Position numbers and translations under genes: made by a program. This document shows, piece after piece, positions 1,921 through 48,681 of a DNA stretch of 64,000 bases. Source of the DNA: an uncultured Gammaproteobacteria bacterium (GTDB taxonomy: Bacteria; Patescibacteriota; Microgenomatia; Levybacterales; UBA12049). The stretch lies in NCBI GenBank assembly GCA_964515545.1, contig CAZERI010000002.1:149731-213730 (forward strand), in the 5' to 3' direction. Within the stretch, counting starts at the first letter, position 1; each line of letters starts with the position of its first letter. A model generated the notes under the pieces. That model was not told the origin of the DNA. It was given only the letters and a program-made list of their open reading frames with translations, and did not search any database.

Positions 1921-2295
1921 ATCAGAATTATGTATTGAACAAGGATTAAAAGCAACAGCTTTAACTAAATTATAAAAATAGTAATAATCCTAAGGATAAG
2001 GCTATAGTATTGATAAGCTGCTGAGGATCTAAGATACTGAATGTATAACTGTTGTGAACATTAAAGAACTACTCGCTTTAAAGAGATTTTCTTTTGGTCA
2101 TTTACTTCTTCTATTTTCTTTTGCTCTTACTCCAATTCTTTTATTTAGTAATAAGGTCGGTAGTGCTGAACTCAGTGCAGCATGGGCATTTATTTATCTT
2201 TCAGTGGCTATAGTTGAATCTGTATTACCTCTTCATAAGAGGAAATAATTTAGAAGTAATTATTAAATTAACTCCTAAGATGCTACAATTAGCTC

Positions 2296-20304: not shown

Positions 20305-20811
20305 ATGAATATGAAAAATAAGAAGATAATGATCTCTGTTGCAGCGGTTGCTATACTGCTCCTTGGTATCGGTGGATATTTCGTGCTAGCTCAGAAAAAT
20401 ACCAAGCCTCCGGTTGAGAACCCTTATGAGTCAGAAGACGCGATTAAAATACCTGCCAGTGATATTGGTCTTACCATGGAATTAAGTGCTGATGAGAAGA
20501 AAGTTAGATTTACTGCTTCCAAGTTGGATGGAGCTACATCTCTGGAATGGACCTTTAACTATGATGCAGATATTCCACCTGATCAGAGATCTGAAGCAGA
20601 TGGAGCAGCAAAAGTCTCTCAGGCATTCGGAAGCCTTGAACCAGTAGATGTATCTGGCAAGTCTTCTTATACATCTGAATATAGAGAATTAGGAACCTGC
20701 TCAAGTGGCCATTGTCGCTATGATACAGGGGTTGAAAAAGTAAATCTTGTTCTTAAAATGACAAAGACGGACGGGAAAGTTTACCAAATAGAAGACTCAA
20801 TCAGCCTCTGA
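20305..20811 (+). CDS. hypothetical membrane-anchored extracytoplasmic protein
   Basis: N-terminal signal anchor (ISVAAVAILLLGIGGYFVLA) and no recognisable domain. TTGACA-N16-TACAAT promoter-like element at about 20270-20298. Confidence 0.4.
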   Translation: MNMKNKKIMISVAAVAILLLGIGGYFVLAQKNTKPPVENPYESEDAIKIPASDIGLTMELSADEKKVRFTASKLDGATSLEWTFNYDADIPPDQRSEADGAAKVSQAFGSLEPVDVSGKSSYTSEYRELGTCSSGHCRYDTGVEKVNLVLKMTKTDGKVYQIEDSISL

Positions 20812-21038
20812 GTGGTCAGCTCATCATCCTCCATTCCAAGACCTATTTTCTCCTTCTCTTAGCTGTTTTTTCTTACATTCTTTACCACTAGATGTAGTGT
20901 CGCAAGTAATCTGCAGTACACAACTCTGTGAAAATTCGTGTTGACAAGCTCATGTGAAAAGTGCAAAATAAATAAATAGTAGTGAAAAGTAGTTTTCAGT
21001 AGTGTTTTTTGTTACTATTTCTGGTACATTAACAAGCT

Positions 21039-21476
21039 ATGCTTTCAGGACAAGTAGAAGGAAAATTATCGAAGAAGTTCCAGTGTGCCTTTCCGAAGAA
21101 TTTTAGACAAGAATTAGGCTCTGTATTAATGGTGACTAAGAGTATAGATGAGTGTTTGTTAGTTGTTAGTGAGAAAAATTGGGAGACACTTTTGGAAGGA
21201 ACAAAAGGACAGCCATTTTTAGATAAAGCAACACGTGAATTGCAGCGCTACCTTTTTGGTAATGCTACGACGATTAGATTGGATGGACAAGGTAGATTTA
21301 TTCTCCCTGTCTACCTCAGAGAATACGCAGGGATGAGGAAAAATATTGTTTTTGTGGGAGTACAGCGGTATGTGGAGATATGGAGCAGCGAGAAATGGAT
21401 AAGTCATCAGAGAAGCATAGCTAAAAGTGTCGAATTACTTACTATAGATCTGTCCAAATCTGAAGGACATGAATAA
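21039..21476 (+). CDS. mraZ: transcriptional regulator MraZ
   Basis: First gene of the dcw cluster, immediately upstream of rsmH. Second DxxxR repeat LDGQGRFILP present. About 145 aa. Confidence 0.7.
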   Translation: MLSGQVEGKLSKKFQCAFPKNFRQELGSVLMVTKSIDECLLVVSEKNWETLLEGTKGQPFLDKATRELQRYLFGNATTIRLDGQGRFILPVYLREYAGMRKNIVFVGVQRYVEIWSSEKWISHQRSIAKSVELLTIDLSKSEGHE

Positions 21477-22350
21477 TTATCATACATCTGTTCTTTTACA
21501 AGAAGTACTTACCTTACTAGCTGTCAGACATGACGGTTTGTATATTGATTGTACGTTAGGAGGGGGAGGCCACACATTCAAGATTATAGAAAAGGGTGGG
21601 AGAGTTCTGGGATTTGATGTAGATGAAGACGCGATTGCTTTCGTTAAAGAAAGATTACGAGAGAAAAATCTGAATGAAGGAGAGGAACTTACTATTGTTC
21701 AGTCAAATTTCAACGTGGTAGGAAAAATAGCCCCGAAGCTGGGATTTGGCAAAGTAGATGGGATACTCATGGATTTAGGAGTCTCGAGTCATCAATTTGA
21801 TGAACCATCACGTGGATTTAGTTTTAGAGATGGCCCTTTAGATATGCGGATGGGAAAAGCGTTAGGGGTCAGTGCAGGGGATTTAGTAAATGGACTGACG
21901 GAAAAGGAATTGAGAGAGTTGTTTGAAAGATTTGGTGAAGAGCCATTTGCGAGAAAGATCGCTAAAAGGATCACTGAGGCCAGGAGAAAAAGCCCGATCA
22001 AACGGACTGAAGAGCTAGCTGAACTAATCAGAGCAACTGTGCATGGGGAGCAGGGTATCCATCCTGCTACACGTGTTTTTCAGGCATTAAGAATAGCAGT
22101 AAATGATGAGCTGAATATCTTACAGGAGGTTCTCCCTCAGGCTGTAGAGTTACTAAAGCCTCAGGGAAGACTGGCTGTAATTTCATTCCACTCACTCGAA
22201 GATAGGATTGTCAAACAGATGTTCGAGCAGTTAAAAAAAGAGAACAAAGTTAGAATGGTGACTAATAAGCCAGTTACAGCAAGTGAAGAGGAAGTACTTC
22301 AGAATAAACGTGCTCGAAGCGCTAAGCTTCGAGTCATAGAAAAAATATAG
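21469..22350 (+). CDS. rsmH: 16S rRNA (cytosine1402-N4)-methyltransferase RsmH (MraW)
   Basis: HTSVLLQEVL, DCTLGGGGHT and GILMDLGVSSHQFD motifs. Confidence 0.9.
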   Translation: MNNYHTSVLLQEVLTLLAVRHDGLYIDCTLGGGGHTFKIIEKGGRVLGFDVDEDAIAFVKERLREKNLNEGEELTIVQSNFNVVGKIAPKLGFGKVDGILMDLGVSSHQFDEPSRGFSFRDGPLDMRMGKALGVSAGDLVNGLTEKELRELFERFGEEPFARKIAKRITEARRKSPIKRTEELAELIRATVHGEQGIHPATRVFQALRIAVNDELNILQEVLPQAVELLKPQGRLAVISFHSLEDRIVKQMFEQLKKENKVRMVTNKPVTASEEEVLQNKRARSAKLRVIEKI

Positions 22351-22370
22351 TTTGTCTCAAAAGTAAAACT

Positions 22371-22652
22371 ATGAAAAAACCTGTCCTATTTATTATTTTA
22401 AATCTCACTGTCATTATCGGGCTCTCAATTGCCCAAGTTGTAGCAGCTAATAGCATCTCAACCACAGGGATTGAGCTGGGGAAAATACAAGATCAGACCA
22501 CCAAGCTGCAAAAGCAAAATGAAATTCTTAAAGAGCAAGTGCTTACGCTCTCGTCTCTCACCTCTATTGCATCCCGAGCAGGAAGTATGGGATTTGAAGA
22601 AGGAAAATCCACACTTGTTATCTCTCAACCGCTTCCAATTGCTAGAAGATGA
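22371..22652 (+). CDS. cell division protein FtsL-like (septum formation initiator family)
   Basis: 93 aa with one N-terminal TM then a coiled-coil (LGKIQDQTTKLQKQNEILKEQV). Sits at the ftsL position between rsmH and ftsI. Confidence 0.5.
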   Translation: MKKPVLFIILNLTVIIGLSIAQVVAANSISTTGIELGKIQDQTTKLQKQNEILKEQVLTLSSLTSIASRAGSMGFEEGKSTLVISQPLPIARR

Positions 22653-24349
22653 TGAGCTGGCGATATAGATTTGTTTTATTTTCATTTATCTTTGCTTTTT
22701 TGCTGATTTCAGCCAGACTTTTTTATTGGCAGGGTGTAAAGGCAATTGAGCTCTCTGCCCTAGGGGAATCACAGTATGGTCAGGCAATAAAACTAGATCC
22801 AGTCAGAGGAGAGATCAGGACTTCAGATGGATTTCCCATCGCTGCTAATAAATTAACCTATCAGGTATTTGCCAATCCAAAAGAGGTAAAGAATATCTCC
22901 AAAACTACAGACCTTCTTGCTCCAATCTTAGATGAGGATTCCGCTAGTATCTCAGCACTTCTCTCACTTAATAGATATTGGGTGGCGCTTAAACCTCATG
23001 TTGATAATGATACGAAGATTAAAATAGACGGCCTAGATCTCCCTGGTGTAGGCTTTGATGATCAGTCAGTCAGATTTTACCCAGAAGCTTCTATTGGTGC
23101 TAAGTTGTTGGGTTTTGTTGGTAAAGATGATGCAGGTGATGATACAGGCTATTTTGGACTCGAAGGATACTATGATAGACAGCTAAGAGGCAAAGAAGGA
23201 ATAGCCAAACAAATTCACGATGCTTTTGGAAGGCCCATTTTAGCCAAAGTAAATAATGCAAGCGGAGAGGTAAATGGAAGGAGCCTCAATCTTCATATTA
23301 ATCGGGTTCTTCAGTATGTTTTGGAAAACGAGCTTAAAACAGGAATTGAAGTTAATGGTGCAGCAGGGGCTATGGCTGCTATGATGGATCCAAAGACCGG
23401 TGGTATTCTGGCTTTAGCCTCTTATCCTTCCTTTGATCCGAGATCTTATTATGATTACACAGATACAGACTATAAAGATAGTTTTATTTCTGATACTTAT
23501 GAACCAGGATCCACCTTTAAGCCACTTGTTATGGCTGCAGCAATTAATGAAGGGTTAGTGAAGCCTGAGACACGATGTACAATTTGTGCAGGCCCTGTCT
23601 CTATTGGTGGATATGATATCGAGACATGGAATAACAAATACGAGCCTAATTTGACGATGACTAAGGTAATTCAGGAGTCTGATAATACGGGGATGGTTTT
23701 TGTCTCTCAGAAATTAGGGTTGGATCGTATGATCCAGTATATAAATAAATTTGGTTTTGGTCAGGCAACGAATATTGATCTCCAAGGAGAAGTAACTCCT
23801 AGTATTCGTCCGAGAAATGAGTGGTATCCTATCGACCTTGCTACTTCCAGCTTTGGACAAGGTATATCAGTCACTCCTATTGAGCTGCTTACTGCTATAG
23901 GAGCACTCGCTAATGGAGGAAAAAGAATGGAACCGCATGTTGTGGAAAGTATTGAGACACCAGATGGAAAAAAGATCACGATTCCTCCTAAAGTAGTGAA
24001 TCAGCCAATTAAAGAAGAGACAGCTAAAATTATGACAGAAATAATGGTGAATGCTGTTAATAAAGGAGAGGCGCAATTTGCCAGAATTAAAGGATATCGT
24101 ATCGCTGGAAAGACAGGAACTGCTCAGATCCCTGTAGCTGGGCACTACGATCCTACTAAGACAATCGCATCATTTGTCGGATATGGTCCGGCTGAGGATC
24201 CCAAATTTGTTATGCTAGTTATCTATGATAGACCAACGAAATCCATTTATGGAGCAGAGACCGCTGCTCCAACATTTTTTCATATCGCAAAGAGAGCGCT
24301 TGAGTATTTCAATATAGCACCAACAGAGCTTGATGAATTGGGGAGTTAG
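22649..24349 (+). CDS. ftsI: penicillin-binding protein 2 / FtsI-type transpeptidase
   Basis: N-terminal TM and dimerisation domain. Transpeptidase motifs STFKP (SxxK), SDN (ESDNTGM) and KTGT (AGKTGTAQ). Confidence 0.9.
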   Translation: MMSWRYRFVLFSFIFAFLLISARLFYWQGVKAIELSALGESQYGQAIKLDPVRGEIRTSDGFPIAANKLTYQVFANPKEVKNISKTTDLLAPILDEDSASISALLSLNRYWVALKPHVDNDTKIKIDGLDLPGVGFDDQSVRFYPEASIGAKLLGFVGKDDAGDDTGYFGLEGYYDRQLRGKEGIAKQIHDAFGRPILAKVNNASGEVNGRSLNLHINRVLQYVLENELKTGIEVNGAAGAMAAMMDPKTGGILALASYPSFDPRSYYDYTDTDYKDSFISDTYEPGSTFKPLVMAAAINEGLVKPETRCTICAGPVSIGGYDIETWNNKYEPNLTMTKVIQESDNTGMVFVSQKLGLDRMIQYINKFGFGQATNIDLQGEVTPSIRPRNEWYPIDLATSSFGQGISVTPIELLTAIGALANGGKRMEPHVVESIETPDGKKITIPPKVVNQPIKEETAKIMTEIMVNAVNKGEAQFARIKGYRIAGKTGTAQIPVAGHYDPTKTIASFVGYGPAEDPKFVMLVIYDRPTKSIYGAETAAPTFFHIAKRALEYFNIAPTELDELGS

Positions 24350-24351
24350 GA

Positions 24352-24690
24352 CTAGCGGATAGAGGATCCAGGAAGAGTAGTGCTTGATGGAATAAGAGGA
24401 ACAGGGCGTCCTCCATCTTTTCCTTCTGCAGCAAGAATCATACCTTGAGATTCCTCATCCATCATCTTTCTGGGAGCTAAGTTTACGATAAAAATAAAGC
24501 TTTTATCAGCAAATTCTTCAGGTTCAAACATCGGATAAAGAGCCGTAAAAATGGTCTTTACTCCTTCATCACCAAAATCAACACTAAGCCTGATCAGCTT
24601 TTCAGATCCTTCTTTGCGTTCAGCTTTTGTGACTAACCCTACTCGCAGATCGAGTTTGGCAAAATCATCAATTGTTACAATATCTTTCAT
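24352..24690 (-). CDS. tRNA-binding protein (CsaA/Trbp111-like EMAP/OB-fold domain)
   Basis: MKDIVTIDDFAKLDLRVGLV matches the tRNA-binding domain found at MetRS/PheT C-termini and in CsaA. Start taken at the internal Met of ORF 24352..24723. Confidence 0.7.
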   Translation of the reverse strand: MKDIVTIDDFAKLDLRVGLVTKAERKEGSEKLIRLSVDFGDEGVKTIFTALYPMFEPEEFADKSFIFIVNLAPRKMMDEESQGMILAAEGKDGGRPVPLIPSSTTLPGSSIR

Positions 24691-24730
24691 CTTCTTTATT
24701 ATACCATGTCCACCGCCTAGCAATTAACAA

Positions 24731-24759
24731 TTGACAATATATAGGACTATGATTATTAT
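24731..24759 (+). promoter_or_regulatory. sigma70-like promoter TTGACA-N17-TATTAT for the purF-purN gene
   Basis: TTGACA at 24731-24736, 17-nt spacer, TATTAT at 24754-24759. Confidence 0.4.
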
Positions 24760-24816
24760 GGAGTTGATGCTACTTAAGAGCAATCAATATAATAATTATT
24801 ATTAATGACTGAATGC

Positions 24817-24840
24817 AACCCGCCATGGCGGGTTTTTTTA
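24817..24840 (+). terminator. intrinsic-terminator-like hairpin in the 5' leader of the purF-purN gene (candidate attenuator)
   Basis: AACCCGC-CATG-GCGGGTT stem-loop followed by TTTTTTT, about 50 nt downstream of the predicted TSS and about 38 nt upstream of RBS GAAAGGA/ATG 24879. No upstream + strand gene for it to terminate. Confidence 0.5.
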
Positions 24841-24878
24841 TGGAAAGACTAGTAGTAGTTGGGAATGAAGATGAAAGG

Positions 24879-27014
24879 ATGCTGCAGGATAAATGCGGTA
24901 TCATAGGGCTGAGCTACCCCGACTGGATGATGGATAGCAAAGGTGAGGCTGCACCTAGCATGGTACGCAATGCTTTAGTAGCACTTCAGCATAGAGGTCA
25001 AGATAGTGCGGGTTTTACCGCTTTAAATGGAGATATGAAGACGTATCACGGGATTGGTCTTATTAACCAGGCAATTCCGGATGAAGATTTAGTAAAGGCA
25101 GGCGGAAGCAGGAGAGCTATTGGACATACACGATATAGAACTAAGGGCAGTATCTCAGGTGAGAACAGTCAGCCTATCCAGGTGCAAAATAATGATTATG
25201 TGCTTAGTCTTGCCCATAATGGCAATCTTACTAACGTTAATTGGCTGCGTGATAATACCGAACAGGTTTTTTCAGAAGATGCATCTGACACGGTTCTTCT
25301 GACTGCTTACCTTCTGCAGCAACGACACCTCTATCCCTCATGGGAGACTACTTTTCAAGAAGAAATGCCTCGTGTTAAAGGTGCATATAGCGCTGTAGCC
25401 TTAACAGAGGATGGAAATCTGCATGGTTTTAGAGACCCTTATGGAATTAGACCCTTTGTCGTCGGAGCATTTAGAGAGGGAGGAGTAATGATGGCCTCAG
25501 AATCTGTCGCTTTTGATACTGTGGGTGCTGAATATAGGAGACAGCTTGAGAGAGGTGAAATTATGACAGTAACTCCTGATGGAGACATACAATCGCTTTT
25601 CTATGGAGAGCCTAAAAGATCGAGATTCTGTACTTTTGAAAATTTTTATTTTCAACGTCCCGAAACATTTAGTAATGGTCAGAGGGTACAGTCAGGCAGG
25701 GTTGAGTCCGGTAGATTACTAGCCGAGAGGATGGAAAGTAAAAATATTAACTTTGATATCGTAGTTCCTACCCCTGCATCAGGATCACTTGCGGGGGAAG
25801 GATTAGCTGAGCGCTCAGGTAAACGGCTGGTCCATGGAGTAGGAACGAGTCATTATCTTGGGAGGACCTTTATTATGCCAGGGGAGGAAAACCGTAAAGA
25901 TGCGGTAAGCAATAAGCATATTATCATGCCGGATGAGCTGGATGATATGTCTGTAGCAGATGAAGACGACTCAACTGTACGCGGAACAACCTCAGGTAAA
26001 ATTACTGAAGAATTACGAAGAGGAGGTGCTCGTGAAGTGCATAAAGCCCTAGCTGCTCCTCCTGTTGTTAATACTTGTGATTTGGGGGTAGATATGCACG
26101 ACCGCTCAGAATTGCCTGCTGCAAAAGTAGCGGATAGATCTCATGAGGAAATAGAAAATTATATGGCACAGGTTATGCATTCGGATACTGCTACATTTCT
26201 TACTCGTGAAGAAGTATCAAGAGCGTTTAATAGGGATGAAAAAGATATGTGCACCTTCTGTCTAGGTGGTGAGCATCCAGTCCATGGCCGACAAGAGGAA
26301 TTTCCTCAACGGGAACGCCAAATGAGAGGCAGGCCAAAGCTTTCAGTTTTTATCTCAGGTAATGGGACTAATCTTCAGGAGATAATAAATGGAACTCAGT
26401 CCGGTACGCTTAAGGGGGAGATTGTCTCAGTTGTCTCGAGTAATCCTTATGCTTTTGGCCTCCGAAGAGCAATGGAGGCAGAACTGCCAATTTTTTCTAT
26501 TAGTTCCAAAGGAAAGTTGAGTAATCCTTTAAAAAGAGCAGAGTACGAAGAAAAATTACTGGATGTGCTCTATTCCAATCTCCCTGATGTTCTGGTTCTG
26601 GCTGGATTTATGAATATATTAGGAGATTCTTTTTTAGAAACTATGCAGGATTTAGAGATACCAGTTGTTAATCTCCATCCAGCTCTTTTGCCTTCTGATA
26701 AGAGGGATCAGATAGCGACTTCTCGAGGAAGAATGCCTGTTCTGAGGGGGACAGATGCGATTGATAAGGCTTTTGATCTTAATTTGCGTGCCTCAGGGGT
26801 AACGGTACATCAGGTACTGCCTGGAAATGAGTGTGATACTGGACCGGTTATTCTTAAAGAAGAAGTCCATCGTCGAGTAGACGATACACCTGAGGAGTGG
26901 GAGAAGAGAATTCATGAAGCAGAATTTAGAGTCCTTCCAACAGCTATTAAGAGAGTTCTTCATGTTATGGAACATGGAATAGATGTCAGCCGAGGTGAGT
27001 TCCCCTGGAGCTAA
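24879..27014 (+). CDS. purF: bifunctional fusion: amidophosphoribosyltransferase (PurF, Ntn glutamine amidotransferase + PRTase) fused to a PurN-like formyltransferase (GAR transformylase) domain
   Basis: N-terminal MLQDK-CGIIGL (propeptide plus catalytic Cys). RGQDSAGF, IGHTRYRTKG, HNGNLTN and the PRTase motif DEDDSTVRGTTS. C-terminal about 200 aa with LSVFISGNGTNLQEII, NLHPALLP and GVTVHQV...DTGPVIL, the Formyl_trans_N/PurN motifs. Start moved to ATG 24879, preceded by GAAAGGA. Confidence 0.8.
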   Translation: MLQDKCGIIGLSYPDWMMDSKGEAAPSMVRNALVALQHRGQDSAGFTALNGDMKTYHGIGLINQAIPDEDLVKAGGSRRAIGHTRYRTKGSISGENSQPIQVQNNDYVLSLAHNGNLTNVNWLRDNTEQVFSEDASDTVLLTAYLLQQRHLYPSWETTFQEEMPRVKGAYSAVALTEDGNLHGFRDPYGIRPFVVGAFREGGVMMASESVAFDTVGAEYRRQLERGEIMTVTPDGDIQSLFYGEPKRSRFCTFENFYFQRPETFSNGQRVQSGRVESGRLLAERMESKNINFDIVVPTPASGSLAGEGLAERSGKRLVHGVGTSHYLGRTFIMPGEENRKDAVSNKHIIMPDELDDMSVADEDDSTVRGTTSGKITEELRRGGAREVHKALAAPPVVNTCDLGVDMHDRSELPAAKVADRSHEEIENYMAQVMHSDTATFLTREEVSRAFNRDEKDMCTFCLGGEHPVHGRQEEFPQRERQMRGRPKLSVFISGNGTNLQEIINGTQSGTLKGEIVSVVSSNPYAFGLRRAMEAELPIFSISSKGKLSNPLKRAEYEEKLLDVLYSNLPDVLVLAGFMNILGDSFLETMQDLEIPVVNLHPALLPSDKRDQIATSRGRMPVLRGTDAIDKAFDLNLRASGVTVHQVLPGNECDTGPVILKEEVHRRVDDTPEEWEKRIHEAEFRVLPTAIKRVLHVMEHGIDVSRGEFPWS

Positions 27015-27038
27015 ATGCTTTGCTATACTGGATATATT

Positions 27039-27611
27039 ATGACGGGACGAACACATGATTTGGCTGCTTTTACAGCTTTGTCGTATGTTCTCGTTACGAC
27101 TCCTCCAGAAAAAATAAGTCTTGCTACCGCTCTTGTTGCATTCTCAGTTAATATGGTGGGAGGCCTTGCTCCTGATTTGGATCAGCCTACTGCTAGACTT
27201 TGGCATAATATCAGAGGAGGAAGCATTATCGGTAAAGTTATCTCCCCGCTTCTGGGAGGTCACCGATTTATTTCACACTCTCTTATCGGTATAGTCATAG
27301 GAGGGATAATTGCTAAAGCAGTTCTTGATATAGTGGGCACTGTGCTTCTTGTCGATATGCATATTGTCTGGTGGGCATTTATGATAGGGATGGTTTCTCA
27401 CATTTTTATGGATTTATTTACTCATGAAGGCGTTCCTCTTCTTTTTCCTATTCCCATCCGATTTGGAATTCCTCCGTTAAGTTTTTTGAGAATAAAGACA
27501 GGAGGACTCGTAGAGAAGTCATTTGTCTTTCCTATTCTTATCTTTATAAATGGCTTCCTTTACTATACCAACTATCAGACAATTCTTACGTTTTTACGTC
27601 ATTTGCGATGA
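27039..27611 (+). CDS. membrane-bound metal-dependent hydrolase (DUF457/YdjM-like)
   Basis: MTGRTHDLAAF N-terminus, multiple TM segments and conserved His residues (HSLIG, HIFMDLFTHEG), consistent with DUF457. Confidence 0.55.
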   Translation: MTGRTHDLAAFTALSYVLVTTPPEKISLATALVAFSVNMVGGLAPDLDQPTARLWHNIRGGSIIGKVISPLLGGHRFISHSLIGIVIGGIIAKAVLDIVGTVLLVDMHIVWWAFMIGMVSHIFMDLFTHEGVPLLFPIPIRFGIPPLSFLRIKTGGLVEKSFVFPILIFINGFLYYTNYQTILTFLRHLR

Positions 27612-27650
27612 AAATAGAATCTCACCATTGAGAGGTATATAATACACACA

Positions 27651-28835
27651 ATGCTTCAGTCAGCAAAAAATTATTTTCATTTATTACAGGCAATTCGGGC
27701 TGTGAGAAAGTATAAGAATCCCTCTCAGAGCTTAACGATAATAGGAGTAACTGGGACTGATGGAAAGACTACTACTGCAAGTCTTATTTACCATATTTTG
27801 AAAGAAGCAGGCTATAAAACAGCTCTCATTTCGACTGTAGCAGCATACATCGAGGATAAGAAATATGACACTGGATTTCACGTCTCGACTCCTGATAGCG
27901 CTACCCTTCAATCATATATCGCAAAAGCCAAAAAAGTCGGTGTAACCCATATTGTGTTGGAGGTAACGTCACACGCTCTTGATCAGCATAGAGTCCATGG
28001 AATTCATTTCGCAATCGGAGTCTTAACGAATATTAGCCATGAGCATTTAGATTATCATAAGACAATGCAACATTATATGCAGGCAAAAGCCAAACTTCTA
28101 GAGAGTTCGGATGTCTCTATTATTAATCGTGATGATGACTCTTATACTTTTATGCAGAATCGTCTAAAAAATAAAAAGGTAATAAGTTATGGTTTGAGCA
28201 ATTTAGCTGACAGCAACCTTTCAAACCATTCTTTTAAAACAAATCTGCCAGGTATATTTAACCAGTCCAATATCTTAGCTGCGTTAACGGTAGCAGATAT
28301 TTTAGAAGTTGATCCTCAGAAAGCTGCCCATGCCATCTCTTCTTTTCACCTTCCTGAAGGGAGAATTGATGTTGTCTACGATAAGGACTTTAAAGTCATT
28401 ATAGATTTTGCACATACGCCGAACGCTCTTAGAAACATTCTGCAGACTCTCAGGGAGACTACTCCTCAGGGAAGGATAATTCATGTCTTTGGCAGTGCAG
28501 GGAAAAGAGATGCAAGCAAGAGACCAGCTATGGGAAAGATTTCTCAAGAGCTTTCTGATATCATCGTCCTAACTTCGGAGGATCCAAGAGATGAGTCACC
28601 TGAAAAAATTGCGGAAGATATCACCTTGGGTATGACAGCCAGCCAGACTAAGCTTTCTTTTATAGCAGATAGACAGGAGGCTATAACTCAGGCGATACGT
28701 CTCGCGGAGAAAGGCGATGTGGTTATTATCACAGGGAAAGGTCATGAAAAATCGATGAATTTAGGCCAGGGAGAAAAAAAATGGAGTGATCATGATGCAG
28801 TAGAGAAAGCCTTAAAAGAATTATGGAAAAATTAA
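27651..28835 (+). CDS. murE: UDP-N-acetylmuramoyl-L-alanyl-D-glutamate--2,6-diaminopimelate (or L-Lys) ligase MurE, short N-terminus
   Basis: Mur ligase P-loop IGVTGTDGKTTT, central DFAHTP and C-terminal LTSEDPRDE (DNPR-like) motifs. Confidence 0.8.
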   Translation: MLQSAKNYFHLLQAIRAVRKYKNPSQSLTIIGVTGTDGKTTTASLIYHILKEAGYKTALISTVAAYIEDKKYDTGFHVSTPDSATLQSYIAKAKKVGVTHIVLEVTSHALDQHRVHGIHFAIGVLTNISHEHLDYHKTMQHYMQAKAKLLESSDVSIINRDDDSYTFMQNRLKNKKVISYGLSNLADSNLSNHSFKTNLPGIFNQSNILAALTVADILEVDPQKAAHAISSFHLPEGRIDVVYDKDFKVIIDFAHTPNALRNILQTLRETTPQGRIIHVFGSAGKRDASKRPAMGKISQELSDIIVLTSEDPRDESPEKIAEDITLGMTASQTKLSFIADRQEAITQAIRLAEKGDVVIITGKGHEKSMNLGQGEKKWSDHDAVEKALKELWKN

Positions 28836-30241
28836 GGAAAATTCATTTTGTAGGAATAAAGGGGGTCGGTATGACGCCTTTAGCGATTATTGCTAAAGAA
28901 GCAGGTATAGAAGTCTCAGGGAGTGATGTAGCAGAGAGATTTATTACCGATGCTGCTCTTAAGAAAGCGGGAATCTACCCTCAGGAAGGATTTATTCCGG
29001 AACATATTACATCAAATATTCAGCTAGTCATAACCACCGGAGCGCATGGTGGGTATGAGAATGTCGAAGTAATCAAAGCCCGTGAACTCTCAATTCCTGT
29101 TATAACCGCAGGAGAGGCTGTTGGGGAATTCATGCAGGGGGATATCTTAGGCAGGAAATTTCAAGGAATTTCCATCACAGGATCACATGGTAAAACTACC
29201 ACGACTGCTATGCTCACCACAATTTTTCAAGAAAATAACTTAGACCCATCATATTTGATCGGAACAGGCAGTTTTGGAGATTCCTTGCCGGGACATTTTG
29301 GTAAGGGGGATTATTTTATAGCTGAAGCAGATGAGTACGCGACTGAGCCGAAGCATAATCATAAGGCACGCTTCCTGTGGCAGCATCCCTCTATGGCTCT
29401 CTTTACTAATATTGAGCATGATCATCCCGATATCTATCCTACTATGGAAAGTATCGTTAAGGTATTTGAAGAATTTGCATTACTTATCCCTCATAATGGA
29501 GTGTTGGTAGGGAATGGAGATAATCCTTATGTCACAAAAATTTTTCAAAAAATGTCCTGCCAGACTATCACTTTTGGCCTATCTCCAAAGAATGACTACG
29601 TAATTGATCGAGTGCATATTTCAAGCAGCCAGACTTTTTTTCGTGCCCATACTAATGAAATTGATTTAGGCGAATTTAGGTTGTCAGTGACAGGGGAACA
29701 TAACGCGCTTAATGCACTTGGAGCTGCAGTTCTTGCGTTAGAGGCTGGCCTTCCCCTTGAGAAAATTAAATCTTCACTTGCGGTATATACCGGATCAAAA
29801 AGGAGACTTGAGTATAGAGGACAACTAACAACAGGAGCGTATGTATTTGATGATTATGCCCATCATCCGACCGAGATTAAAGCTACTCTTAAGTCACTTC
29901 GCCAGCGCTTCCCTCAGTCAACTCTGATTGCTGTCTTTCAGCCACATACCTATACTCGTACCAAGACGCTCCTTGAGGAATTCGTAAAGTCATTTGATGA
30001 TGCTCATAATGTTATTATTACTGATATTTTTGCATCAGCTAGAGAAGTTAAAGATGAGACAGTCTCTTCAAAGCTTCTTCTGCAGAAGCTTGCTACCCGT
30101 CATCCTGCAGCTTTATATATTCCTTCTCCTGAAATGGCAGTGGAGCTTCTTTTAAAAGAGAGACTTAAAGATAATGTGGTAGTTGTTTTTATGGGAGCGG
30201 GAGATATCTATCAGGCTATTGATTTATTGTCTTTTAAATAG
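28823..30241 (+). CDS. murC: UDP-N-acetylmuramate--L-alanine ligase MurC
   Basis: IHFVGIKGVGMTPLA N-terminal MurC signature. P-loop ITGSHGKTTTT. C-terminal Mur ligase domain. Confidence 0.85.
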   Translation: MEKLRKIHFVGIKGVGMTPLAIIAKEAGIEVSGSDVAERFITDAALKKAGIYPQEGFIPEHITSNIQLVITTGAHGGYENVEVIKARELSIPVITAGEAVGEFMQGDILGRKFQGISITGSHGKTTTTAMLTTIFQENNLDPSYLIGTGSFGDSLPGHFGKGDYFIAEADEYATEPKHNHKARFLWQHPSMALFTNIEHDHPDIYPTMESIVKVFEEFALLIPHNGVLVGNGDNPYVTKIFQKMSCQTITFGLSPKNDYVIDRVHISSSQTFFRAHTNEIDLGEFRLSVTGEHNALNALGAAVLALEAGLPLEKIKSSLAVYTGSKRRLEYRGQLTTGAYVFDDYAHHPTEIKATLKSLRQRFPQSTLIAVFQPHTYTRTKTLLEEFVKSFDDAHNVIITDIFASAREVKDETVSSKLLLQKLATRHPAALYIPSPEMAVELLLKERLKDNVVVVFMGAGDIYQAIDLLSFK

Positions 30242-30255
30242 GGCAAAATGGTATA

Positions 30256-31602
30256 ATGCAGACGATGGACAAGTACATAATCACAGGCGGAAATGTCTTA
30301 AAGGGAGAAGTAAGAGCCAGCGGTGCTAAGAATGCAGCCCTTAAAGCATTAGTAGCAGCCTGTCTTACTGATGAAGAAGTAATAATTAAAAATGTTCCCG
30401 AGATTGCTGATGTCTATGTAATGCTTGAGATCATGAAAGAACTCGGAGCAAAGGTGAGTTTTACTGATCACACAGTCCGCGTCCAGATGCAGGATTTTGT
30501 CACCCATAAGCTTTCACTGGAAAAAGCAGCACAAGCAAGAACTTCTTCTATGTTCATCGCTCCTCTTTTAGCACGATATAAAGAAGCTATTGTCCCTAAT
30601 CCTGGTGGTTGCAGATTAGGCGCTCGGCCTATTGATCGGACAATCGAGGGAATTGTTCATATGAATGCTCATATCCATTACGACAGTGATGATGGCTATT
30701 TCCATGCGAAGACCGTAGGGCTGCAGGGGATTGATTACACCTTTACCAAGAATACTCATACCGGTACTGAGACGCTCATCTTAGCTGCAGCTTTAGCAGA
30801 AGGGACAACTGTCCTGCATAATGCAGCAGAGGAACCTGAGATTGATGACTTGATAGGGTTGATTAATGCCATGGGTGGGAACGTAGAGCGGACCAATGCG
30901 AGAGAAATTACTATCGTGGGAGCAAAAAAACTCCATGGTGCATCATATACCATTAGCCCTGATCGGAATGAAGTAGTTACATTTGCTATTATGGCCTATG
31001 TTACTAAAGGTGATGTTTTTGTGAGAGATGCCCAAAAGGTAGACTTACAGGCATTCTACGAAAAATTAGATCAAGCAGGAGCATCCTATGAAAAAAAAGA
31101 AGATGGAGTAAGATTCTATTACGAAAAACCGCTGCAGGCAGTGAGTGTAGAAACCGCGATTTATCCGGGATTTATGACTGATTGGCAGGCACCATGGGCA
31201 GTCTTAATGACGCAAGCGATTGGAGAATCTATTGTCCATGAGACAGTATTTGAAAATAAATTATCATATATCAATGATTTAAAGAAGATGGGAGCAGCGG
31301 TGACGCTTTTTAATCCTGAAGTTGCCGATCCTGAGAAAGTGTATAACTTTAATCTAGAAGATAATGATCCGTCTTTTTTTCATGCAGTTAAGATTGTCGG
31401 CCCTAAACCACTTCATAATGCTGTGGTCATGATGGCAGATATCAGAGCGGGGGCTGCTGTAGTTCTGGCAGCGTTGTGCGCAAGCGGTGAAAGTTATATC
31501 TTAGATGTTCAGAAGCTGGACCGTGGGTATGAGCATTTTGAAGAAAGAATCCAAGCTCTTGGAGCGAGTATTAAGCGTGTTCGGGGTGAAGAAGTATTAT
31601 GA
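30256..31602 (+). CDS. murA: UDP-N-acetylglucosamine 1-carboxyvinyltransferase MurA
   Basis: YIITGGNVLKGEVRASGAKNAALK. EPSP-synthase fold, about 448 aa. Confidence 0.9.
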   Translation: MQTMDKYIITGGNVLKGEVRASGAKNAALKALVAACLTDEEVIIKNVPEIADVYVMLEIMKELGAKVSFTDHTVRVQMQDFVTHKLSLEKAAQARTSSMFIAPLLARYKEAIVPNPGGCRLGARPIDRTIEGIVHMNAHIHYDSDDGYFHAKTVGLQGIDYTFTKNTHTGTETLILAAALAEGTTVLHNAAEEPEIDDLIGLINAMGGNVERTNAREITIVGAKKLHGASYTISPDRNEVVTFAIMAYVTKGDVFVRDAQKVDLQAFYEKLDQAGASYEKKEDGVRFYYEKPLQAVSVETAIYPGFMTDWQAPWAVLMTQAIGESIVHETVFENKLSYINDLKKMGAAVTLFNPEVADPEKVYNFNLEDNDPSFFHAVKIVGPKPLHNAVVMMADIRAGAAVVLAALCASGESYILDVQKLDRGYEHFEERIQALGASIKRVRGEEVL

Positions 31603-32360
31603 CATCGTCTCAAGTCGGAGCAATTATTCTAGCAGCAGGGAAGGGGAAGCGAATGCAGAGTATCTCCATGAACAAAACTGCCTCTCTTCTTGGCAACAAA
31701 CCTATGATTCAGCATATTGTTGAATTTATGCAGAAAATATCTATTGGGCAAATAATTATAGTAGTAGGTTTTGCGAAGGAATCAGTAGAGAAAGCTTTAG
31801 AGGGATTTAATGTGACATATGCAGAGCAGACAGAACAATTAGGAACTGGTCACGCTGTTAAGGAAGCAATGAGAGAACTGCATCCTCAGATAAAAGATGT
31901 CTTAGTTGTCTATGGTGATGATGCAGTACTTTATAATAGTAACAACTCTCAAGTTGTTGCTGACTTGATTAGAAAACATCAGTCAGAAGGTAATTCAGTA
32001 ACGTTCCTTACTATTGAGCAGGATGATCCTACTGGCCTGGGAAGAATTATCCGCGATGAGAAGGGGGAGGCACTAGGAATTGTTGAGGAGAAAAATGCCA
32101 GCGATGAACAAAGAAAAATCACTGAAATAAATCCTGGCTGTTTTGTCTTTAGTGTGGAGTTCTTGAAAAAGTATATAAAGAGTATTGAAAAAAATGAGGT
32201 ATCAGGAGAGTATTACTTAACTGATCTGGTAGATATTGCTCGGACTAACCAGCTAAAGATGAATACAGTAAAAGGCGGTAAGCTGCTATGGCGAGGAGTT
32301 AATACTCCTGAAGAGTTACAGACTGCTCAAAAAATGATGGGAGAAATACTGCATGGATAA
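31599..32360 (+). CDS. stand-alone GlmU-N-like sugar-1-phosphate uridylyltransferase domain (UDP-GlcNAc pyrophosphorylase) lacking the LbetaH acetyltransferase domain
   Basis: AIILAAGKGKRM and EQTEQLGTGHAV motifs of the GlmU N-terminal domain. Only 253 aa, with no hexapeptide repeats. Confidence 0.7.
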   Translation: MTSSQVGAIILAAGKGKRMQSISMNKTASLLGNKPMIQHIVEFMQKISIGQIIIVVGFAKESVEKALEGFNVTYAEQTEQLGTGHAVKEAMRELHPQIKDVLVVYGDDAVLYNSNNSQVVADLIRKHQSEGNSVTFLTIEQDDPTGLGRIIRDEKGEALGIVEEKNASDEQRKITEINPGCFVFSVEFLKKYIKSIEKNEVSGEYYLTDLVDIARTNQLKMNTVKGGKLLWRGVNTPEELQTAQKMMGEILHG

Positions 32361-32787
32361 TATCGAATTTAAAAAAGTTCTGGAATTTACTCCTGAAATT
32401 GGGAAAGCTATACGGGATCTTACTGATCAGCTGGATAAAAACCACCAAGAGCTTTCGGATACTGATATAAGAGACATGATAGAGAATCCAGGGACTCATC
32501 TTCTAATCGCAAAAGATGCAGAACATATCGTTGGGATGATAACACTCATCGTGTATAGAATTCCTTTTAAGATGAAAGCTCAGCTGGAAGATTTTATTAT
32601 TGATGAAAGTATGCGGGGTAAAGGACTGGGAACTAAATTACTCCAATTTTCTATAGATGAGGCCAAAAAAGCCGGAGTGAAGTCCCTTAACCTGACATCC
32701 CGTCCCATCCGTGAGTCAGCAAATCTCCTCTATCAAAAAATGGGATTTCAAAAACGTGATACCAATGTGTATAGGATGGAACTATGA
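32353..32787 (+). CDS. GNAT family N-acetyltransferase
   Basis: Acetyl-CoA binding motif RGKGLGTKLLQFSIDEAKKAGV (Q/RxxGxG/A). 144 aa. Confidence 0.8.
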   Translation: MDNIEFKKVLEFTPEIGKAIRDLTDQLDKNHQELSDTDIRDMIENPGTHLLIAKDAEHIVGMITLIVYRIPFKMKAQLEDFIIDESMRGKGLGTKLLQFSIDEAKKAGVKSLNLTSRPIRESANLLYQKMGFQKRDTNVYRMEL

Positions 32788-33458
32788 CAAGTACCTTTCA
32801 AGAGAAAAAAGTACTTTTATTAGACATTGATCATACACTTTTTGATACCCGCCTTTATACAAATCTTTGCTACCAGGAAATCTTTACCTATACTGGTAGC
32901 TCAGATAAAGAAGAATTTATCAGGGTATGTAATCAATTGTACGCAGAACAAAGGAAAGTAGGTCCTTTTACTACTTCTCAGTTTATAGATAGCTTATATG
33001 TGGTTTTTCCTATCCAGACAAAGAGAAGCACTTTAGAAAAAATATTTGCAGATGAAACAATAATTAGAAAAGCTCTTTATCCTGATACTGAAGAAACACT
33101 TCAGAAATTATCTCAACGAAAGGATCTCCTCATAGGTGTTTTCTCGACAGGTCCTCTCCATCATCAAAGATCTAAAATAAATTCACTTCTTAGTTATTTT
33201 CACCAAGAGCATATTCATATCAATGAGGCAGATAAGATAAAAGATATCCCTTCGATCCTTGAAAGACATAAGGAGAGGAAGGTCTATGTTGTTGATGATT
33301 TAGCAAAAGTATTACATAATTTCAAAGCAAAAAATGATAGTATAATTACGATCCTTATAGAGAGAGACGTTATTTTGACAAAAGATCAGGTACTGGATTT
33401 TGAGCCTGATTATAGAGTAAAATCGCTTGACGAAATAATACAGATCATAAATATGTAG
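32784..33458 (+). CDS. HAD-superfamily hydrolase/phosphotransferase
   Basis: Motif I LLLDIDHTLFDT (DxDxT). About 224 aa Rossmannoid. Specificity unknown. Confidence 0.6.
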   Translation: MTSTFQEKKVLLLDIDHTLFDTRLYTNLCYQEIFTYTGSSDKEEFIRVCNQLYAEQRKVGPFTTSQFIDSLYVVFPIQTKRSTLEKIFADETIIRKALYPDTEETLQKLSQRKDLLIGVFSTGPLHHQRSKINSLLSYFHQEHIHINEADKIKDIPSILERHKERKVYVVDDLAKVLHNFKAKNDSIITILIERDVILTKDQVLDFEPDYRVKSLDEIIQIINM

Positions 33459-33474
33459 TTATTTTGGTAACCAT

Positions 33475-35235
33475 ATGTGTGGAATATTTGGATATATCGG
33501 TACTAGAACAGACGCTCCAGAGATAGTCTTGGATGGATTAAAACTCTTGGAATATCGTGGATATGATTCCTGGGGTATCGCTGCTAAGGTCGATAAGACT
33601 ATCGAGGTTGATAAGCATGTGGGTAAGATTGGTAATGCTACTATTAACTTCCCTCCTAGCAGTCTGAGTATTGGGCATACCCGTTGGGCAACCCATGGTG
33701 GTGTTACTGATATCAATGCTCACCCTCACCTCGACTGCACCAGACAGATTGCAGTAATACATAATGGAATTATAGAAAATTTTGAAGAGATAAAAGAAGA
33801 ATTACTACAGAAAGGACATACCTTTATTTCCGAAACTGACACTGAAGTAGTTCCTCACCTTATTGAGGAGCATCTTAAAACACAGGGGTTTGCACATGCA
33901 TTTAGGAATGCTTTTAATCGACTTCATGGGCTGAATGCGATAGTGGTCGCCTATGCACCCTCTAAAGAAATCATGGCAGCCAAGACTGGTTCACCGCTTG
34001 TTTTAGGTATTGGCGATGAAGAACTTTTCCTCGCGTCTGATTCTGCAGGAATTATTCCTCATACCAGAAAGCTAATCTTTATGAAAGACGGAGAGATGGC
34101 AATCTTAGGGAAGAAGCTGCAGCTTATTGCATTGAAAACCGGGGATCAGATTGAACCAGTAATAGAGGAAGTAAATTGGAAAGTAGAAGATGTGCAAAAA
34201 GGCGAGTACGACCATTTCATGCTCAAAGAAATGCATGAGCAGTCACAAATTGTCCGCAATATTGCAAGTACATATGACGATCAAGTGAGAGATATGGCTG
34301 CATTGATAAAAAATGCGTATGGTACTTATTTTATTGGCGCTGGCACTGCCTATCATGCAACTTTAGCAGGAACCTATCTTTTCTCAAAAATTGCTAAGAA
34401 GCATGTTAATACGTCACTTGCCTCAGAATTTAATTATCTTGAGGACTTTTTAACAGATAGGAGTTTAGTTATCCCTTTATCTCAGTCGGGGGAGACAATT
34501 GACGTTATTGAGCCTCTTACTCGGGCTAAAGAAAAAGGGAGTAAGATTGCAGCTCTTGTTAATGTCCTCGGCTCAACAATTTATCGCATGGCTGATAAAA
34601 AAATTCTTATTGGTGCTGGTCCAGAAAAAGCAGTCGCATCTACGAAAGCCTATATTGCTAAGTTAAGTGTGCTTATCCAGCTTGCTTATGCTCTTAGTGG
34701 CGAGTTAGAAGAGGGAAAGAAAGTTTTGGAAAAGGCTGCAGGCGAAATAGATAAAATACTTGGTGAAGACATGAAACAAACTATTGATACGATAGCTGAT
34801 GTCCTTTTAGATGCTGAGCATATCTATACTGTTGGGCGCGGATTATCATTTGCTACTTCTTTGGAGGCAGCATTAAAAATAAAAGAAATTAGCTACATTC
34901 ATACTGAAGGACTTGCAGGAGGAGAACTTAAGCATGGCCCGATAGCTCTTATTTCTCAGGGCACACCATGTATTGTATTCGCTCCAAGTGATGAAACGTA
35001 TTCTGCAATGATCTCCAATGCACGCGAAATTAAAGCTAGGGGAGGAGTAATCATAGGCGTTGGATCGAAAAAAGAGGAAGTATATGATCACTTCATCAAA
35101 GTAGGAGACTGCGGTGCAGCATCATTAATTGCACAAATTGTCCCTATGCAGTATCTTGCTTATAAATTGGCAGTAAAGAAAAATTTGGATCCTGACAAAC
35201 CCCGTAATCTAGCAAAAAGCGTTACGGTAAAGTGA
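33475..35235 (+). CDS. glmS: glutamine--fructose-6-phosphate aminotransferase GlmS
   Basis: MCGIFGYIG Ntn start, two SIS domains and C-terminal KSVTVK. 586 aa. Confidence 0.95.
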   Translation: MCGIFGYIGTRTDAPEIVLDGLKLLEYRGYDSWGIAAKVDKTIEVDKHVGKIGNATINFPPSSLSIGHTRWATHGGVTDINAHPHLDCTRQIAVIHNGIIENFEEIKEELLQKGHTFISETDTEVVPHLIEEHLKTQGFAHAFRNAFNRLHGLNAIVVAYAPSKEIMAAKTGSPLVLGIGDEELFLASDSAGIIPHTRKLIFMKDGEMAILGKKLQLIALKTGDQIEPVIEEVNWKVEDVQKGEYDHFMLKEMHEQSQIVRNIASTYDDQVRDMAALIKNAYGTYFIGAGTAYHATLAGTYLFSKIAKKHVNTSLASEFNYLEDFLTDRSLVIPLSQSGETIDVIEPLTRAKEKGSKIAALVNVLGSTIYRMADKKILIGAGPEKAVASTKAYIAKLSVLIQLAYALSGELEEGKKVLEKAAGEIDKILGEDMKQTIDTIADVLLDAEHIYTVGRGLSFATSLEAALKIKEISYIHTEGLAGGELKHGPIALISQGTPCIVFAPSDETYSAMISNAREIKARGGVIIGVGSKKEEVYDHFIKVGDCGAASLIAQIVPMQYLAYKLAVKKNLDPDKPRNLAKSVTVK

Positions 35236-35264
35236 TGTAGTAGTTAGCGTCTGCTCTTTTACAT

Positions 35265-44328: not shown

Positions 44329-45594
44329 TTATTGCGTTCCTTCATTCCAGGAGGAGAGGTATTTTTTCTGTTGAGGAGTAAGCTTGTCAATTTGAATATC
44401 CATAGCTTTTAGTTTTAGGCTTGCTACCTGGATGTCTAATTTTTTAGGCAGAACATAGACTTTATTTTCTAATTTTCCTTTGTTATGGACGAACCACTCA
44501 GCAGAAAGAGCCTGATTTGCAAAGCTCATATCCATCACTTCTGCCGGATGGCCTTCTGCTGCAGCGAGATTTACCAGTCGTCCCTCTCCTGCAACATAGA
44601 TTTTTTTACCACTTTTAAGAATATATTCGTCAAGCTGATGTCGGATTCTCCTTTTTGATTTTTTTTCTTTCTCGAGTCCTGCCATGTCTATCTCCACATC
44701 AAAGTGGCCGGAATTAGCAACGACAGCTCCGTCTTTCATTGTTTTCATATGACTGAGACTGAGGACATGCTTATCTCCAGTGGCTGAGATGAAGATATCA
44801 CCATTTTTTGCAGCCTGAGCCATGGGCATGACAGAAAAACCATCCATGGCTGCTTCTAATGCTCGAATTGGATCGACTTCTGTTACTATGACGATACCTC
44901 CTAGCCCGCGTGCTCTCTCTGCAATCCCGCGGGAACACCAGCCATAACCAGCAACTACGACAATTTTCCCTGCAATGAGAAGGTTAGTGGCGCGTATTAC
45001 CCCATCAAGTGTAGACTGACCCGTTCCATACCGATTATCAAACATATGCTTGGTATCAGAGTCATTAACAGCGATAACAGGGAGGCGGAGGGCTTTGTCT
45101 TTTTCCATGGCTTTAAGCCGGATAACTCCTGTGGTGGTCTCTTCACTTGAGCCATAAATCTCAGACAGCTGCTTTTGTCTTTTGGTGTGGAGGAGAGAGA
45201 CGAGATCTGCTCCGTCATCCATTGTAATGTGAGGGTGATAGTCCAAAACTGTATTAAGATGTTCGTAGTAAGTTTTGTTATCCTCTCCTTTAATAGCAAA
45301 AGTAGGGATGTCAAAATCAAGAGCCAGAGAGGCAGCTACGCTATCTTGGGTAGAGAGTGGATTTGAGGCGCACGCGACAACTTTAGCACCACCTGCTTTT
45401 AAGGTAGTAAGAAGATTAGCTGTCTCTGAGGTGATATGGAGACAGGCAGCAATAGTAAGATTTTTAAAGGGTTTTTCTTTCTCGAAACGATCTCTAATAG
45501 TACGGAGGACTGACATTTGCTCTCCTGCCCATTCTATTTTTAGTTTTCCTTCTTTGGAGAGAGTCTTATCTTTAATGTCAAACTTTTTATCCAT
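44329..45594 (-). CDS. ahcY: adenosylhomocysteinase (S-adenosyl-L-homocysteine hydrolase)
   Basis: [25 protein letters not shown]-binding GYGWCSRG, about 421 aa. Confidence 0.9.
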
Positions 45595-45600
45595 GAGGAA

Positions 45601-48541: not shown

Positions 48542-48681
48542 ATTTCTACTCTTTCAGGGTCGGGTGACTCGCAGTGGCGAGAATTCCCAATCGGTAGTTA
48601 CACTCTACGAGTTTTCCTAATTAGGAGACAGGAGTCTGTTAGACACAGACAGCGACGGTATAGTCCGGATAGAAGAAAGAT

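Follow-up and report, generated by a model that had tools for sequence, protein, structure and literature searches.

A 64,000-nucleotide stretch of DNA from an uncultured bacterium placed in the Levybacterales of the Patescibacteriota (assembly GCA_964515545.1, contig CAZERI010000002.1, positions 149,731 to 213,730; hereafter the window) raises the question of why a gene for purine synthesis should stand among genes for cell division and cell-wall synthesis, the dcw cluster. This gene, here called purFN, is a single uninterrupted open reading frame (ORF) of ~2.1 kb on the plus strand, ending at position 27014, and it joins an amidophosphoribosyltransferase (PurF, purine step 1) to a glycinamide ribonucleotide (GAR) transformylase (PurN, step 3). 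An earlier, sequence-only reading of the window had described the fusion, called it GC-richer than its surroundings, and proposed a horizontally acquired moonlighting enzyme or an unusual partial pathway. Our analysis suggests that purFN is very probably the gene of a genuine bifunctional enzyme of de novo purine synthesis that moved out of a pur operon.

Pfam and NCBIfam profiles place PurF before PurN in one protein, as had been read from the ORF at 24879-27014, and alignment with solved PurF and PurN proteins recovered every motif quoted for it. Within the PurF half, Pfam GATase_6/7 matched residues 78-212 and NCBIfam purF (TIGR01134) residues 23-467, the latter with 297 bits, and the N-terminal two-thirds of the protein aligned end to end with solved PurF from Arabidopsis, B. 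subtilis, and E. coli (E = 3e-70 to 2e-58). The putative catalytic Cys (codon 24894-24896) follows a propeptide of ~19 residues, and the segment MLQDK-C6-GIIGL aligns with Cys1 of 6LBP. The glutaminase-site residues R39/G40, R85/Y86/T88, N114/G115, and D137 are all present (E. coli R26/G27, R73/Y74/T76, N101/G102, and D127). Four cysteines, C251, C400, C458, and C461 (25629, 26076, 26250, and 26259), align with the [4Fe-4S] ligands of the B. subtilis enzyme, and a putative cluster site of the B. subtilis type is present. Across 39 full-length fusion homologues, C6, R39, G40, R85, Y86, T88, N114, G115, D137, D363, and D364 of this half were invariant.

The C-terminal domain matched Pfam Formyl_trans_N (PF00551; residues 487-690, E = 1e-33) and NCBIfam PurN (TIGR00639; residues 487-695, 138.2 bits). 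Since other formyltransferase families scored far lower there (PurU 52-55 bits, Fmt 23 bits), its profile-based assignment to PurN is clear. The C-terminal third also aligns with the solved PurN proteins 3AV3 and 3P9X, and N598, H600, D653, and E682 were invariant among the same 39 homologues. A family-specific insertion of ~15 residues (26694-26750) directly follows the HPALLP motif and forms a beta-hairpin in the predicted structure. That structure, an AlphaFold2 model of the whole chain built on the alignment of the 39 homologues, reached a mean predicted local distance difference test score (pLDDT) of 90.1 and a predicted template modeling score (pTM) of 0.91, and its only disordered stretch, residues 326-344, corresponds to the flexible loop of PurF. 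In Foldseek comparisons, the model matched 1AO0 with a template modeling (TM) score of 0.88 (on the target; 474 columns) and 3AV3 with a TM score of 0.92; the Foldseek search returned no solved structure covering both the PurF and the PurN parts. Because the pTM is high, the model suggests a fixed interface between PurF and PurN.

The fusion is not confined to this locus. Among 5.8 billion protein clusters searched, ~42 full-length fusions were recovered at 42-83% identity, and the matches that came next were standalone PurF proteins at ≤37%. None of the ~42 matches was named as a fusion, their source names giving amidophosphoribosyltransferase or formyltransferase only. An exhaustive comparison with 1.84 billion cluster representatives at the 50%-identity level yielded ~20 full-length fusion representatives among 1,610 PurF-like clusters (E ≤ 1e-30). 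A neighbor-joining tree of the PurF halves, which carries no support values, placed one large fusion clade apart from the standalone PurFs and dispersed four small fusions among them; these four look like independent events. By their sequences, the PurF-PurN fusions of the large clade appear to form a divergent, old, monophyletic PurF subfamily. Within that clade, pairwise identities define three groups: W, with the window protein, P0002 and P0003 (83%), and P0004 (59%); X, with P0005-P0008, which are 53-57% identical to W and encoded on DNA of 62.6% GC that includes a 2.47-Mb contig; and Y, the majority of the clade, 42-49% identical to W and at 38-39% GC. We found no description of a PurF-PurN (steps 1 and 3) fusion in the literature, which bears out the earlier remark that the architecture is not a textbook one. 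It recurs, besides, in ~20 50%-identity clusters and stands next to the same dcw genes in the 83% and 59% relatives. The fusion thus seems rare and apparently undescribed, yet recurrent in uncultured bacteria.

Two features vary within the family. A seven-residue insertion after the Cys1 strand, DWMMDSK (24912-24932; residues 12-18 in the 711-aa form), occurs in the window protein, P0002, and P0003 only and is lacking in all 36 other fusion homologues. In clade Y (P0010-P0040), the C-terminal CxxC ligand pair is replaced by YxxP (region of window residues 455-465) and the other two cysteines are kept, which may mean that the [4Fe-4S] cluster was lost there; the window clade and clade X retain all four ligand cysteines. 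Separately, a GTDB genome scan with the family alignment gave mostly ordinary PurF proteins and no close relative among the matches listed. One apparent fusion from that scan, in a Solirubrobacterales metagenome-assembled genome (L013, 9959-12052), was rejected: purF and purN are adjacent but separate ORFs there, 9 nt apart, an order that could be a precursor of the fusion.

In all seven of the other lineages for which context was available (L001, L002, L003/L004, L097, L098, L109, and the JGI 3300056388 contig), the fusion gene lies inside a complete pur operon. The order is purK-purE-purC/M-purFN-purD-purL-purQ in L001 and the JGI contig, whose operon is flanked by PAS, GGDEF, and EAL genes, and purFN-purD-purL-purQ-purP-(purH)-purB-purK-purE-purC in L002, L003/L004, and L097. 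In L098, purFN is followed by a gene for a 1,446-aa PurD-PurL fusion and later by one for a PurE-PurC fusion, so that two neighboring genes cover steps 1+3 and 2+4. The same lineages carry further purine fusions, namely PurD-PurL (1406-1446 aa), PurE-PurC (500 aa), and PurC-PurM (657-668 aa), at L098 7736-14341 and 18937-20439 and L001 7913-9919 and in proteins P0281, P0285, P0287, P0303, P0305, P0323, P0325, and P0377. PurL relatives bear NCBI names that include Patescibacteria, Roizmanbacteria, and Gottesmanbacteria. For a part of that radiation, therefore, making purines de novo from fused genes is the normal state, and the fusion is not restricted to the radiation, as clade X shows.

The surroundings of purFN in group W are of another kind. 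Every W contig examined, including that of the 59% relative (L096), carries in this order ftsI, a tRNA_bind gene on the minus strand, purFN, ydjM, murE, and murC. Because the same order is found at 83% and at 59% identity, this placement next to dcw genes is old and stable.

In comparison with the 83% orthologue, nonsynonymous divergence (pN) was 0.083 in the PurF half and 0.115 in the PurN half, with synonymous divergence (pS) saturated at ~0.7; the essential neighbors gave pN values of 0.049 (FtsI), 0.082 (GlyRS), 0.092 (MurC), and 0.134 (MurE). Both halves are therefore under strong purifying selection, comparable to that on FtsI, MurC, and GlyRS. Lineage W departs at 11 of the 176 alignment columns with at least 90% conservation among the non-W sequences; each of these changes is conservative and none touches a catalytic residue, and the control clade X, which has the full pur operon, likewise shows 11 altered columns of 176. 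There is no sign of decay or of a change of function in lineage W. The moonlighting role proposed for the enzyme fits poorly with this constancy and with the presence of the fusion in full pur operons elsewhere. Repurposing of the PurN domain as an N-formyltransferase for cell-wall sugars was also considered and ruled out, as the domain is orthologous to those encoded in pur operons and its substrate residues are unchanged.

On the model of the solved homologues, removal of the propeptide of ~19 residues would expose Cys1, the N-terminal glutaminase domain would hydrolyze glutamine, and the ammonia would pass to the phosphoribosyltransferase (PRTase) domain, where phosphoribosyl pyrophosphate (PRPP) would be converted to phosphoribosylamine (step 1). 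A separately encoded PurD would then make GAR (step 2), which the C-terminal PurN would formylate with N10-formyl-tetrahydrofolate by means of its Asn-His-Asp triad (step 3), giving one protein with predicted PRPP amidotransferase and GAR transformylase activities. In the window lineage, purFN would have moved long ago from a pur operon to its place between ftsI and murE, where it appears to have its own promoter and a conserved leader with a hairpin and a U-run. The occurrence of PurF-PurN beside PurD-PurL, together with the rigid interface of the model, might further mark an obligate complex that channels phosphoribosylamine, although we regard this extension as speculative and rather doubtful.

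Several observations weigh against a genuine purine enzyme. Neither half reaches the equivalog cut-off of its NCBIfam model (350 bits for TIGR01134 and 150.1 bits for TIGR00639), and Pfam Pribosyltran (PF00156) stays below threshold in the window protein, although it is detected in many members of the fusion family. Furthermore, the ~84 kb around purFN (the window plus ~10 kb per side) contains no purD or other pur gene: tblastn with nine proteins of relatives (PurK, PurE, PurC-M, PurD, PurL, PurQ, PurP, PurB, and PurH) found nothing in the window, and the 10 kb beyond each of its edges carries only polysaccharide-synthesis genes, so the earlier statement is upheld as far as these ~84 kb go, with neither PurD nor other pur genes nearby. 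Profile searches for PurD and PurL likewise gave no hit on a lineage-W contig among the best 120 matches each; P0361, P0303, and P0146, considered as PurL or PurD of lineage W, all come from clades Y or X, with purFN next to them, and the L109 locus, whose sample is a sibling of one that yielded a lineage-W contig, proved to be an operon of clade Y. Such absences would suit an orphan or repurposed enzyme in a lineage without the remainder of the pathway, be it lost or never acquired, where the protein has a role tied to the mur genes, for example by supplying phosphoribosylamine or a formylated derivative to some process that does not lead to inosine monophosphate (IMP). The association with ftsI, ydjM, murE, and murC, stable over deep divergence, and the conserved leader that purFN has to itself are consistent with that role as well. 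We nevertheless consider it improbable, since neither the catalytic centers nor the residues that bind GAR and PRPP have changed, lineage-specific substitutions are no commoner than in clade X, and the match lists for PurD and PurL, being saturated, are no proof of absence. It is, moreover, common for pur genes to be dispersed: among 80 loci with this PurL type from a metagenome scan with P0360, a scan that did not return the contig of P0360 itself, most lack both purF and purN within 6 kb. Phosphoribosylamine is very short-lived, and to our knowledge PurF has no use without PurD; PurN, for its part, has no substrate without GAR. Similarly little weight falls on the narrower proposal that PurF-PurN is the sole purine-pathway enzyme kept, encoded by the first gene of a mur operon, and either has a non-IMP role or depends on an unrecognized step-2 enzyme. 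Given the short life of phosphoribosylamine and the conservation of both halves in the manner of essential genes, we infer instead that the remaining pur genes lie elsewhere in this genome.

The base composition of purFN could alternatively point to a horizontally acquired island, in which the gene, perhaps with tRNA_bind and ydjM, was recently inserted from a GC-richer donor. Its GC content does exceed that of its surroundings, as the sequence-only reading noted (0.438 versus a mean of 0.395 for the 51 other ORFs; z = 1.55, third of 52), and the fusion clade nearest to W, clade X (53-57%), comes from genomes with 62.6% GC, a size of no less than 2.47 Mb, and PAS and GGDEF signaling genes, while the low-GC clade Y, which resembles the candidate phyla radiation, is more distant (42-49%). 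The difference is modest, however, and no compositional anomaly. It falls on codon positions 1 (0.574) and 2 (0.414) alone, GC at third positions (GC3) being 0.326 versus 0.332 (z = -0.15), and none of the other 51 genes comes closer in synonymous codon usage to the pooled genes of the window, by a measure that favors long genes. Because only the first two positions are enriched and GC3 is native, the GC-rich look comes from the many Gly, Ala, Arg, Asp, and Glu residues of the protein and not from a foreign source; GC3 and synonymous usage are indistinguishable from those of the neighbors, which tells against the horizontal acquisition that had been proposed. Of the three findings that the earlier reading itself had named as counting against it, two were made: this likeness to the neighbors, and the recurrence of the fusion with its dcw placement in relatives. 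The insertion also predates the split from the 59%-identity relatives, at which distance synonymous sites are saturated, and no mobile-element genes flank purFN. We consider an island very unlikely, and a recent horizontal acquisition can in effect be ruled out. An ancient one, between the ancestors of W and X, is possible and would be compatible with a relocated purine gene. Finally, a decaying relic of a lost pur operon, which might be read from the lack of other pur genes in the neighborhood and from the scores of both halves below the equivalog cut-offs, is scarcely credible for an unbroken 2.1-kb frame with all catalytic residues present, pN values of 0.08-0.12 with saturated pS as in essential genes, and retention in at least three sub-lineages and many samples.

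The start of purFN bears on how the gene may be controlled. In-frame ATG codons lie at 24813 (733 aa), 24840 (724 aa), and 24879 (711 aa), and the earlier reading had begun the protein at the last of these, the Met of MLQDK. That Met has no equivalent in L096, where the gene call begins at the ATG directly 3' of a T-run, and the start conserved across relatives is 24840. This ATG is the likely start, with a propeptide of ~19 residues, because the -35 and -10 boxes, the hairpin stem, the T-run, and the ATG that follows are kept in the 83% relatives and in L096; a start at 24813 would put the leader hairpin within the coding sequence (CDS). The 155-nt region upstream of purFN contains the best promoter-like site in the 9.5 kb scanned; it lies in the divergent intergenic region common to purFN and tRNA_bind, and both of its boxes are kept in L010, L012, and L096. 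Further downstream, an AT-rich leader stretch of ~55 nt lies within 24731-24840, and the hairpin is followed by a T-run that ends one base before the ATG at 24840. Stem, T-run, and ATG are kept in L010, L012, and L096, and the top C:G pair of the stem is replaced in L096 by A:T, a compensatory change (one such pair among only three distinct sequences). The leader hairpin with its U-run is a candidate attenuator or start-occluding hairpin, and the leader may have a regulatory role in the expression of purFN and possibly of the downstream mur genes. The fold stability of the leader is unremarkable (z = -0.78), and inspection by eye found no G- or C-rich segment in it able to form an antiterminator. 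An Rfam scan of the leader gave no family above threshold and revealed no known riboswitch. As ydjM directly abuts the purFN stop codon, and a terminator scan of 26900-27650 found no plus-strand terminator-like site before murE, it is plausible that purFN heads a predicted transcript into ydjM, murE, and murC.

Coordinates of purFN, its predicted parts, its leader, and its immediate neighbors (window positions)
Feature	Position	Strand	Remarks
ftsI	22649-24349		upstream of purFN
tRNA_bind gene (CsaA/Trbp111-like)	24352..24723	-	Pfam PF01588, E = 1e-20
Putative sigma-70-like promoter, TTGACA-17 nt-TATTAT	24731..24759	+	best promoter-like match (11/12) in 21000-30500; consensus match only
Leader hairpin, AACCCGC-CATG-GCGGGTT	24817..24834, with T7 run to 24839	+	7 bp, -10.5 kcal/mol; terminator scan
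purFN CDS from the conserved start	24840..27014	+	724 aa plus stop; alternative starts 24813 (longest ORF) and 24879 (MLQDK Met)
PurF N-terminal nucleophile (Ntn) glutaminase domain	24894..25613	+	HRGQD, TRYRT, HNGN, and SDT motifs; aligns with 1AO0, 1GPH, and 6LBP, E = 3e-70 to 6e-67
PurF type-I phosphoribosyltransferase domain	25614..26288	+	PRPP loop DEDDSTVRGTT 25959-25991 (residues 361-371); RTFI conserved
Basic inter-domain linker (…RQEEFPQRERQMRGRP)	26289..26336	+	pLDDT ~90 or more throughout
PurN domain	26337..26963	+	GNGTN 26358-26372; Asn598/His600 26670-26678; Asp653 26835-26837; Glu682
ydjM (YdjM-family membrane hydrolase)	27015..27611	+	Pfam PF04307, E = 6e-22; synteny conserved
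murE	27651-28835	+	downstream of purFN

The location of purFN within the dcw cluster, with ftsI upstream and murE downstream, agrees with the original description, which had portrayed a single gene inserted into a normally contiguous cluster. That portrayal is only partly right: three genes (tRNA_bind on the minus strand, purFN, and ydjM) separate ftsI from murE, and the cluster is otherwise interrupted too, with murA, glmU-like, GNAT, and glmS genes between murC and mraY. The tRNA_bind gene is divergent to purFN and convergent with ftsI, and it accompanies purFN in all lineage-W relatives (L005-L012 and L093-L096). The murC-mraY interval (30256-36824, plus strand) encodes MurA, a GlmU-like nucleotidyltransferase, a GNAT acetyltransferase, an unknown protein of 224 aa, GlmS, and an unknown protein of 519 aa, so that genes for the supply of UDP-N-acetylglucosamine are embedded among division genes. 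MurE (27651-28835, plus strand) has only 394 aa; MurE profiles are matched from about position 93 on, and the Pfam N-terminal Mur_ligase domain, present in the neighboring MurC, is missing from it.

Elsewhere in the window, a gene for S-adenosylhomocysteine hydrolase adjoins a PfkB-family kinase gene, possibly for adenosine kinase (44329-46533, minus strand), and a gene at 56359-57111 (plus strand) encodes a staphylococcal-nuclease/Excalibur protein. These are signs of nucleoside salvage, and perhaps of nucleic-acid scavenging, beside the de novo enzyme. A flavin mononucleotide (FMN) riboswitch (RF00050) at 48546-48684 (plus strand) scored 69.1 bits against a gathering score of 66.2, and the EamA-family transporter ORF directly 3' of it (48682-49602) is likely, from this arrangement, to encode a riboflavin transporter. 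Two clade-Y operons, those of L097 and L098, have a gene for a 283-aa EamA transporter after their final pur gene (21443-22294 and 20469-21320, respectively), and these two copies are 53% identical; the window ORF was considered as a remnant of this pur-linked transporter and dismissed, since the similarity is not significant. The first 2,000 nt of the window (1-2000) are AT-rich (GC 0.29-0.31 versus ~0.40) and contain no ORF of ≥110 aa.

Comparison with characterized enzymes separates what is familiar in PurF-PurN from what is not. With B. subtilis PurF (1AO0 and 1GPH) the window protein shares the Cys1 after a propeptide, the R-G-Q, R-Y-x-T, N-G, and S-D-T motifs, the type-I PRTase fold with its DDSxVRGTT loop, and all four cluster-ligand cysteines, at 32% identity (E = 3.5e-67; TM 0.88). 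Unlike that enzyme, it has a C-terminal PurN domain of 240 residues, a propeptide of ~19 rather than 11 residues, the DWMMDSK insertion that is otherwise found in its closest relatives only, and a score below the trusted cut-off of TIGR01134. The PurN half has the fold of bacterial PurN (E. coli 1CDE; Geobacillus kaustophilus 3AV3, TM 0.92), its GxGTN phosphate loop, the catalytic triad of Asn-x-His and Asp, and the ribose-binding Glu, and it differs from these proteins in its fusion to PurF, in the ~15-residue insertion after HPALLP, and in scoring below the TIGR00639 cut-off. By sequence, each half appears to be a divergent but clear member of its family, and the novelty would lie in their pairing.

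Fusions are familiar in this pathway. Known examples are animal GART (PurD-PurM-PurN), PAICS (PurE-PurC), and PurH, which combines aminoimidazole carboxamide ribonucleotide (AICAR) transformylase with IMP cyclohydrolase; such multifunctional purine enzymes are classic examples of pathway fusion and were the starting point of the purinosome idea. PurF-PurN resembles them in uniting enzymes of one pathway in one polypeptide, again with PurN as a partner, and, like GART, it joins steps that are not consecutive. It departs from them in joining steps 1 and 3 and in having relatives that also carry PurD-PurL, PurC-PurM, and PurE-PurC fusions. A PurN-PurH1 fusion is known from halobacteria, and PurF+PurN is not among the fusions listed in a review of the archaeal pathway (PMC3261824).

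The arrangement has practical consequences for how purine synthesis is recognized in uncultured bacteria. Public sources label one activity of the two, and both halves score below curated cut-offs; surveys of pathway completeness in small-genome bacteria could for these reasons count step 1 or step 3 as absent. The location of purFN in the dcw cluster is a lineage-specific rearrangement of modest interest, and its conserved leader hairpin, which matches no known family in Rfam, is a candidate regulatory element. A fusion of steps 1 and 3 encoded beside a fusion of steps 2 and 4 would offer a simple bacterial system in which the channeling of phosphoribosylamine may be tested.

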